Shown in pieces: positions 26,196-26,436 of a stretch of DNA of 32,000 nt. Under the pieces are notes generated by a model. The model ran no database searches and had not been told where the DNA came from. It saw nothing but the letters and a program-made list of their open reading frames with translations. The position numbers and the translations under genes are program-made. Position 1 is the first letter of the stretch, and the number at the start of each line of letters is the position of its first letter. This DNA comes from Candidatus Electrothrix sp. GW3-4 (GTDB taxonomy: Bacteria; Desulfobacterota; Desulfobulbia; Desulfobulbales; Desulfobulbaceae): assembly GCF_037902255.1 (NCBI RefSeq), contig NZ_CP147990.1:1080001-1112000 (forward strand), read 5' to 3'.

Positions 26196-26386
26196 AAAAC
26201 TCCCTGCATGCTTAACCTTGTAAATACGGGCTGCCGACTCCGGGCCGGGCCATTGATACTGTTCGAGCTCCCGCAGGAGAAAGTAGGAGAAATCGGCGCG
26301 GGATCTACGTTGCGATCTTTTCGATTCCAGGTCTGATACGGCGTCCGATTCTCCTTTTATTGAGATGAACCATGGTAACTCATCTC
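26196..26386 (-). ncRNA. Candidate bridge RNA (bispecific guide RNA) encoded in the IS110 left end
   Basis: Read on the minus strand, the 5' hairpin is ATTGAGATGA...TCATCTCAAT (26389..26359). Loop 1 is closed by ATCGGaCGC/GCGCCGAT and holds TATCAGACCT (26338..26329, identical to left flank plus core) and CGTAGAT (26309..26303, complementary to ATCTACG at the right junction). Loop 2 is closed by CTCCTGC/GCAGGGAG and holds AACAGTATC (26263..26255, identical to the element's 3' end plus core C) and TACAAGG (26222..26216, complementary to CCTTGTA at the left junction). RNA ends are estimates. Confidence 0.7.
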
Positions 26387-26392
26387 AATTTC

Positions 26393-26398
26393 ATAATA
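26393..26398 (-). promoter_or_regulatory. -10 half (TATTAT) of the split promoter at the element's 5' end
   Basis: It lies 2 nt inside the left end. It pairs with the -35 at 25019..25024 only in a circularised or tandem junction, which would place a transcription start at about 26386 in the 5' hairpin. Confidence 0.6.
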
Positions 26399-26436
26399 CA
26401 AGGTCTGATAGAGTGCAACGAAATCAGACGAGCTGA

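Follow-up and report, generated by a model that had tools for sequence, protein, structure and literature searches.

The hexamers TTGACG and TATTAT near the opposite ends of an IS621-like element, located at 26400..25006 on the minus strand, are best explained, with a probability of about 85%, as the separated halves of a junction promoter (Pjunc). All positions refer to the window, which is the whole stretch of 32,000 nt analyzed in this work. While the element is integrated, an outward-facing -35 hexamer (TTGACG, with an A-tract upstream) at the right end (RE) and an inward-facing -10 hexamer (TATTAT) at the left end, 1.4 kb away, both lack a usable partner. Recombination between the two CT cores, carried out by the recombinase, would release the element as a circle, and the abutted ends, TTGACG-GAGATAACAGTAT-CT-TG-TATTAT, would form a sigma70 promoter close to the consensus, its spacer being 17 nt long. 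Transcription is predicted to start near G26386 and to produce a bridge RNA consisting of a 5' hairpin, a target-binding loop and a donor-binding loop, with the transcript probably running on into the recombinase gene. Subsequent bridge-RNA-guided insertion at a new ...ATCAGAC-CT-ACG... site would cut the spacer and switch the promoter off again. For the window copy, we infer promoter activity, the start site and circle formation by analogy with IS621. The features involved are the following:

25019..25024, minus strand: -35 half TTGACG, ending 13 nt from the right end
26393..26398, minus strand: -10 half TATTAT, 2 nt inside the left end (LE)
25028..25033, minus strand: A6 tract at about -44..-39, 3 nt upstream of the -35 half
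26385..26386, minus strand: predicted transcription start, 7-8 nt past the -10 half, by analogy with IS621
26416..26421, minus strand: hexamer TCGTTG, found at the -35 position (spacer of 17 nt) while the element is integrated; it matches TTGACA at 2/6 bases
26193..26400, minus strand: left end (LE), 208 nt, predicted to encode the bridge RNA
25221..26192, minus strand: gene for an IS110-family (IS621-like) DEDD/serine recombinase of 323 aa, the open reading frame between the hexamers
25006..25018, minus strand: last 13 nt of the right end, GAGATAACAGTAT, including the left donor half AACAGTAT and forming most of the joined spacer
26401..26402, minus strand: left copy of the CT core, identified from an empty site with a single CT
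25004..25005, minus strand: right copy of the CT core, identified from the sequence and the empty site
26403..26410, minus strand: left target half (LT) TATCAGAC, flanking DNA
25001..25003, minus strand: right target half ACG, flanking DNA

Both halves of the promoter lie exactly where the preliminary description had placed them, TTGACG at 25024..25019 (13 nt from one end) and TATTAT at 26398..26393 (2 nt from the other), as confirmed by a computational check of the motif positions. On the minus strand, TTGACG is followed by gagataacagtat (25018..25006) and CT (25005..25004); at the left end, CT (26402..26401) is followed by TG (26400..26399) and TATTAT. The joined ends read TTGACG-GAGATAACAGTATCTTG-TATTAT and agree with the consensus at 10 of 12 positions, the consensus being that of E. 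coli sigma70 and the host probably a cable bacterium; the near-consensus match and the exact 17-nt spacer that had been proposed for the joined CT-core junction were thereby reproduced. The RE-core-LE junction k-mer of the window element is GATAACAGTATCTTGTATTATGAAATTGAG. A tract of six to eight A residues, 1-4 nt upstream of the -35 hexamer, is present in the window element, in all relatives of its clade and in IS621 (L080 about 1800-1806), and could be an UP-element-like sequence in the proximal UP position.

The start site was placed at G26386, because the IS621 RNA is read as starting 7 nt after the -10 hexamer: this RNA is 177 nt long, the IS621 LE is 191 nt long, and if the 3' end of the RNA is placed immediately in front of the ATG, it starts at LE position 15. 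G26386 is the first base of a conserved hairpin stem (26386..26362). According to the preliminary description, transcription would start in the 5' hairpin of the guide RNA; the predicted start does touch this hairpin, but at its 5' base rather than inside it, and a start at 26386 would lose only the three outer pairs (26389..26387) of a 10-bp DNA palindrome.

The element, its insertion site and its bridge RNA

The recombinase contains the domains DEDD_Tnp_IS110 (PF01548, E=2.3e-30) and Transposase_20 (PF02371, E=1.6e-22), and it scores 246.7 bits, versus a cutoff of 140, with the NCBIfam model NF033542, 'IS110 family RNA-guided transposase'. It shares 54% amino acid identity with the recombinase of E. 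coli IS621, and the IS621 transposase is its best PDB match. The catalytic positions aligned to IS621 are D10, E59, D101, D104 and S240, equivalent to D11, E60, D102, D105 and S241 in IS621. An exact-protein look-up and a plasmid megablast search returned no match. By similarity, the window element is classified as an IS621-like member of the IS110 group within the IS110 family.

The element is 1395 bp long and is inserted without a scar at the CT core. An empty site was found, via the neighboring HicB protein, in the JGI contig Ga0450804_1671905 (L083 1-60, JGI 3300040801), which has a single CT and reads ...GCACTCTATCAGACCT|ACGCAATTTGACA...; the uninterrupted site in its longer form, compared with window positions 26430..24980, is ...TTGCACTCTATCAGACCT|ACGCAATTTGACATAC..., and the empty-site sequence across the locus is CTATCAGACCTACGCAATTTG. 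Since this contig carries the empty site with one CT, the element boundaries are proven. In the occupied site, CT is present on both sides, and there is no further target duplication beyond this core dinucleotide. On the minus strand, the left boundary (26414..26374) reads ...GCACTCTATCAGAC-CT-TG-TATTAT-GAAATTGAGATGAGTTACC..., and the right boundary (25035..24992) reads ...ACAAAAAAGCC-TTGACG-GAGATAACAGTAT-CT-ACGCAATTTGACA.... DNA homology to 10 copies from Ca. Electrothrix laxa extends from window position 26403 to about 25001 and ends there; one E. laxa copy (L006) is interrupted by other insertions. Occupied alleles of the same locus were identified in contigs of SRR28154588-90, which break inside the element. 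As both empty (L083) and occupied (SRR28154588-90) alleles exist, the insertion is polymorphic in nature, and the window element has probably been mobile recently.

The target including the core is ATCAGACCTAC, which is 1 nt off the wild-type IS621 target ATCAGGCCTAC (PMC11208160). The wider target region (CTGATttcgttgcactctATCAGACCTACGCA, 26401..26438, minus strand) resembles the E. coli REP target of IS621 (CTGATgcgacgctgacgcgtcttATCAGGCCTAC, L080 500-548), and the likeness extends to the upstream complementary CTGAT; no second copy of this target is present in the window. GC-rich REP-like hairpins (GGGCGAnnnnnnTCGCCC-CT) carry the E. laxa and Logan copies at their 3' foot, and the guides of these copies match. 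The upstream neighbor of the window element is a co-oriented gene for an archaeal-type PEP carboxylase (PEPcase_2; 26437..27897, minus strand). Downstream, a HicA/HicB toxin-antitoxin pair (24274..24938, minus strand) adjoins the element directly and is followed by a transposase gene with the DUF4277 and DDE_Tnp_1 domains (IS4/IS1634-like; 22486..24120, plus strand).

The LE (26400..26193) folds as a 5' hairpin and two large stem-loops, and the 177-nt RNA of IS621 folds alike. No Rfam family was found in 24000..27500 (E<=1), and the bridge RNA was therefore assigned by comparison with IS621. It comprises the following parts:

26362..26386, minus strand: 5' hairpin of the bridge RNA (GAGAUGA...UCAUCUC); the DNA palindrome reaches 26389..26359
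26329..26338, minus strand: left target guide UAUCAGACCU, identical to LT plus core
26305..26309, minus strand: right target guide CGUAG, complementary to CTACG (core and right flank)
26254..26263, minus strand: left donor guide AACAGUAUCA, equal to the right-end terminus AACAGTATCT except for the last base (A for T)
26216..26221, minus strand: right donor guide ACAAGG, complementary to CTTGT (core and start of the LE)

In an alignment of six elements (the window element and those of E. laxa, Electronema, a Desulfuromonadales MAG and Undibacterium, together with IS621), the left target guide covaries with the left flank of its own element, and the donor guides are constant. Judged by these matches, the LE encodes a bridge RNA with target-binding and donor-binding loops. 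In the minimum-energy fold, the Shine-Dalgarno sequence of the recombinase gene, GGGAG (26200..26204, minus strand), is base-paired within the stem at the foot of the donor-binding module, and translation from the full-length transcript might be attenuated by this pairing.

Conservation of the hexamers and expression in the integrated state

The RE-core-LE junctions were reconstructed for the genome relatives, yielding 31 distinct junctions. At the -35 position (RE -19..-14), at least 4 of 6 bases match the consensus in 27 of the 31 junctions (mean, 4.8/6), and at the -10 position (LE +3..+8) the same holds for all 31. The geometry, with a -35 hexamer near the right end and a -10 hexamer near the left end at unchanged distances, is found again in 27 lineages, with protein identities as low as about 39%, as had been anticipated for homologues of the element. 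The junction-promoter interpretation of the preliminary description is supported by this comparison, and all of the sequence-level checks that it had proposed came out as predicted.

In these 27 lineages, the information content of the -35 hexamer is 2.0 (T), 2.0 (T), 1.8 (G), 1.5 (A), 0.9 (C) and 0.3 (n) bits, the three bases past it are nearly random (0.2-0.55 bits), and the donor half AACAGTAT and the core are near-invariant. Freely varying positions lie between the conserved -35 island and the recombination site. The -10 hexamer has 2.0 (T), 2.0 (A), 2.0 (T), 0.8 (n), 0.6 (n) and 1.8 (T) bits. Both profiles are typical of sigma70 hexamers.

Several junctions depart from this pattern. In L014, 6 nt are missing between TTGAC and AACAGTAT, which leaves an 11-nt spacer, and the geometry of a junction promoter is lost; L072 has an 18-nt spacer. 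Among more distant relatives, the Dyella junction contains no recognizable sigma70 hexamers, and the Methylophagaceae junction has weak ones (TTGCTT-17-TATCTT).

In 17 of 18 lineages with short right ends, which extend only about 16 nt beyond the CDS, the TGA stop codon of the recombinase gene lies inside TTGAC (short-right-end relatives include L011, L012, L018, L026, L033, L035, L041 and L047). The last sense codon has T as its third base in every case (GCT in 14, TCT in two and GTT in one), and this otherwise free position is thus held at the base with which the TTGAC hexamer begins. The -35 hexamer is located away from the stop codon in the window element and nine Electrothrix-type relatives (5/6) and in L062 (6/6), as well as, in weaker form, in L074 and L075 (4/6) and in IS621 and L073 (3/6). 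In L062 and L073-75, the sequence upstream of the -35 is AT-rich.

These data bear on the possibility that the hexamers are kept for donor-site recombination, for the stop codon or for binding of a subterminal protein, their likeness to a promoter being incidental. Part of the conservation is indeed owed to recombination, since the right donor half shares bases with TATTAT and the left one is AACAGTAT itself (LE positions 1-5 and the RE sequence AACAGTAT pair with the donor guides), and the overlap of TTGAC with the stop codon in most relatives imposes an added coding constraint on this hexamer. Nevertheless, such constraints leave much of the pattern aside: TTGAC-like hexamers are retained far from any stop codon (at least 4/6 in the window element, the Electrothrix clade, L062, L074 and L075, and 3/6 in IS621 and L073), a T precedes TGA in every case, irrespective of the amino acid, and the T at position 6 of the -10 hexamer (LE +8) carries 1.8 bits although it lies just 3' of the guide-paired CTTGT. 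Moreover, an IS621 donor shortened to 22 bp, which lacks the -35, no longer recombines unless bridge RNA is provided in trans (PMC11208160). As this 22-bp donor works with RNA in trans, the IS621 -35 is needed for RNA expression and not for recombination. We consider it improbable that the hexamers are kept for recombination, stop-codon or protein-binding reasons alone, and favor their role as the halves of a junction promoter. Since the donor site sits inside the spacer of this putative promoter, binding of the recombinase and the bridge RNA to the circle may shut off their own promoter.

In the integrated state, the -35 position was said to be occupied by a poor hexamer, and this was borne out: TCGTTG matches 2 of 6 consensus bases, and other spacer lengths give 0-3/6. 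Across 31 insertion sites, the left-flank hexamer averages 1.8/6 in the integrated state, and a promoter scan of 24700..26700 detected no sigma70-like site. A candidate outward hybrid promoter toward HicAB was rejected, as the RE -35 finds in the right flank a -10 hexamer of at most 3/6. The further claim that the promoter exists only when the ends are joined holds in that the integrated copy has no partner hexamer, but it needs to be widened beyond the circle: a head-to-tail tandem dimer would form the same RE-LE junction. In public metagenome and viral contigs, the RE-LE junction 21-mer GATAACAGTATCTTGTATTAT had 0 matches; the shorter 18-mer AACAGTATCTTGTATTAT had 53 metagenome matches, none of which had the RE or its -35 upstream or a recombinase relative (tblastn), and these are chance matches.

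Read-through from the co-oriented PEP carboxylase gene is a plausible source of basal expression while the element is integrated, by analogy with IS621. The stop codon of this gene is 36 nt upstream of the element, and the scan revealed no terminator-like site between the gene and the LE. In IS621, the linear configuration gives only low-level read-through expression, which is sufficient for excision (PMC13626964). It could accordingly be supposed that the bridge RNA and the recombinase are expressed mainly by such read-through and that the junction promoter plays a minor role in the host. Read-through varies with the context, yet the -35/-10 geometry is kept in copies at many loci; in addition, the two sources are complementary, basal read-through permitting excision and the junction promoter acting afterwards. 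A predominance of read-through is, in our estimate, slightly less probable still than a purely recombinational or coding role of the hexamers. Finally, a chance juxtaposition of two hexamers is effectively refuted: the match in a single copy is only moderately significant, because nine sites of at least 10/12 occur on both strands of the 32-kb window (two of them with a 17-nt spacer) and 0.7% of composition-matched shuffles of the two ends contain a junction-spanning site of at least 10/12, but chance becomes untenable since the hexamers are conserved at fixed distances in 27 lineages, with the same geometry in IS621.

Comparison with known junction promoters

Three features are shared by the junction promoters of IS492 and ISEc11 (IS110/IS1111) and of IS911, IS2, IS30 and IS21 (DDE families): an outward -35 hexamer, an inward -10 hexamer, and their assembly only upon abutment of the ends, which couples transposase expression to the intermediate. 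In these elements the promoters drive the transposase, whereas in IS621 and, as predicted, in the window element the first product is the guide RNA. Unlike the spacers of other Pjunc elements, the spacer of IS621 and the window element is the recombination site itself (donor half, core, donor half). The junction promoters of IS492 and ISEc11 are cited in the IS621 literature (PMC13626964, PMC11208160).

The junction-promoter logic that the preliminary description had ascribed to IS110/IS621 is well founded: the RE-LE junction promoter of IS621, which has the same layout as that of the window element, has been demonstrated by experiment to direct bridge-RNA expression (Durrant et al. 2024, PMC11208160; PMC13626964), and junction and linear configurations were compared directly (PMC11208160, PMC13626964). 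Small-RNA-seq of RE-LE constructs of IS621 and five orthologues located the start at the predicted sigma70-like promoter (PMC11208160). The E. coli IS621 sequence that we retrieved (L080) reads TTGCAG-gccataacagtat-CT-tg-TATTAT, a geometry identical to that of the window element; its right end is ...GGAAAAAAC-TTGCAG-GCCATAACAGTAT-CT, and its left end is CT-TG-TATTAT-CCCTCC-AGTGCAGAG.... The two elements share the CT core, a right end finishing in ...ATAACAGTAT, a left end starting with TGTATTAT, a -35 located 13 nt from the right end, a -10 located 2 nt into the left end, the 17-nt spacer, an A-tract just upstream of the -35, an LE-encoded bridge RNA with the same three modules (predicted for the window element), and targets that differ by 1 nt (ATCAGACCTAC versus ATCAGGCCTAC). 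They differ in the -35 hexamer, which is nearer the consensus in the window element (TTGACG, 5/6, versus TTGCAG, 3/6), in the length of the LE (208 versus 191 nt), in the recombinase, which is only 54% identical, and in the 3' non-coding region (215 nt in the window element versus about 107 nt in IS621, with unrelated sequence). The hosts differ as well, probably a cable bacterium (Desulfobulbaceae) versus E. coli.

Membership in the IS110 family does not guarantee a junction promoter, since the circles of ISPpu9 create no hybrid promoter (PMC12288879). ISPpu9 of Pseudomonas putida belongs to the IS110 family, inserts at REP-like hairpins and forms circles (PMC12288879); it has an AG core and no hybrid promoter, in contrast to the CT core and near-consensus promoter sequence of the window element.

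The mechanism proposed here is the known IS110/IS621 junction-promoter switch, of which the window element is a new example. The result is mainly a confirmation, in which a reading of the letters of an uncharacterized IS621-like element sufficed to recognize this switch, and the junction promoter itself raises no new question on IS110 biology. Its practical value is modest: the element provides a natural orthologue with exact ends, an empty site and all four guides, a target 1 nt from that of IS621, and a -35 hexamer stronger than that of IS621. The comparative data add that the IS621-like clade conserves the -35/-10 geometry and that the -35 and the stop codon of the recombinase gene are usually fused, a compact arrangement. 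We found no description of this fusion in the IS621 and ISPpu9 literature (PMC11208160, PMC13626964, PMC12288879).

The clade-specific 3' module

In the window element, the stop codon and the -35 hexamer are separated by an additional segment:

25034..25220, minus strand: 3' module between the stop codon and the A-tract/-35, about 190-230 nt in the clade

This module is limited to the Electrothrix-type clade; Electronema and all other relatives lack it. Between the stop codon and the -35, it was measured at about 208-229 nt in the window element and its closest relatives. It was located in L001 (3470-3696), L086 (1830-2051), L087 (1727-1947), L089 (2272-2484), L091 (1535-1768) and L093 (1207-1436), and its column identity of 82-85% exceeds the nucleotide identity of the CDS. 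The RNAalifold prediction is a long hairpin (at about 25108..25050 in the window) that contains a few compensatory pairs (AU4/GC3, GC4/AU4) and whose G.U pairs fit the sense strand only. The module had no Rfam match; it is apparently structured, according to this model.

Read as its reverse complement, the sequence that directly follows the stop codon (25190..25204, minus strand) resembles the RE-core-LE junction. In the window element this inverted copy is AACAATATGTTGTAT, and 10 of 1000 shuffles match the junction as well; in L091 it is AACAGTATATTGTATGTTCAAATT, compared with the junction AACAGTATCTTGTATTATGAAATT, and 0 of 1000 shuffles match it. A junction-like inverted copy is present at the same position in L086, L089 and L091, and for four of seven elements only 0-10 of 1000 shuffles do as well. 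At the RNA level, pairing of the inverted copy with the active right end (25019..25006) is predicted. This copy looks like a decayed fossil of joined ends, and such a sequence in the 3' module of the clade would point only indirectly to excision of circles. Two further candidates were rejected: the fossil junction has no -35 at a usable distance to serve as an antisense promoter, and alignments of CCTGATACGCATAAAC or CATGGCCTTGAC in the 3' module, viewed as a decayed 'CDS end plus -35', were no better than shuffles beyond the homologous coding part.

A module of this kind recalls ssr9 in ISPpu9/MITEPpu9, an RNA-coding module between the transposase gene and the right end that is bounded by copies of the IS ends (PMC12288879). 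The 3' module with its putative fossil of joined ends resembles this arrangement; unlike in ISPpu9, no independent copies of the module were seen. We tentatively propose, as a speculation with considerably less weight than the junction promoter itself, that the right end was rebuilt in the cable-bacterium clade, where an apparently structured module starting with an inverted fossil of the joined ends would have been put before the -35, so that the -35 became uncoupled from the stop codon and came to adjoin the A-tract, and, as a separate point, that the recombinase and the bridge RNA may shut off their own promoter. One possibility is that the module is a hitch-hiking RNA gene or MITE comparable to ssr9; another is that it acts in cis as an RNA tuning the junction switch, for example as a decoy donor site or as a 3' domain pairing with the right end. 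The 3' module and the right flank have a 10-nt repeat, ACATACAACA, in common, which is no more than chance would produce in 2 kb.
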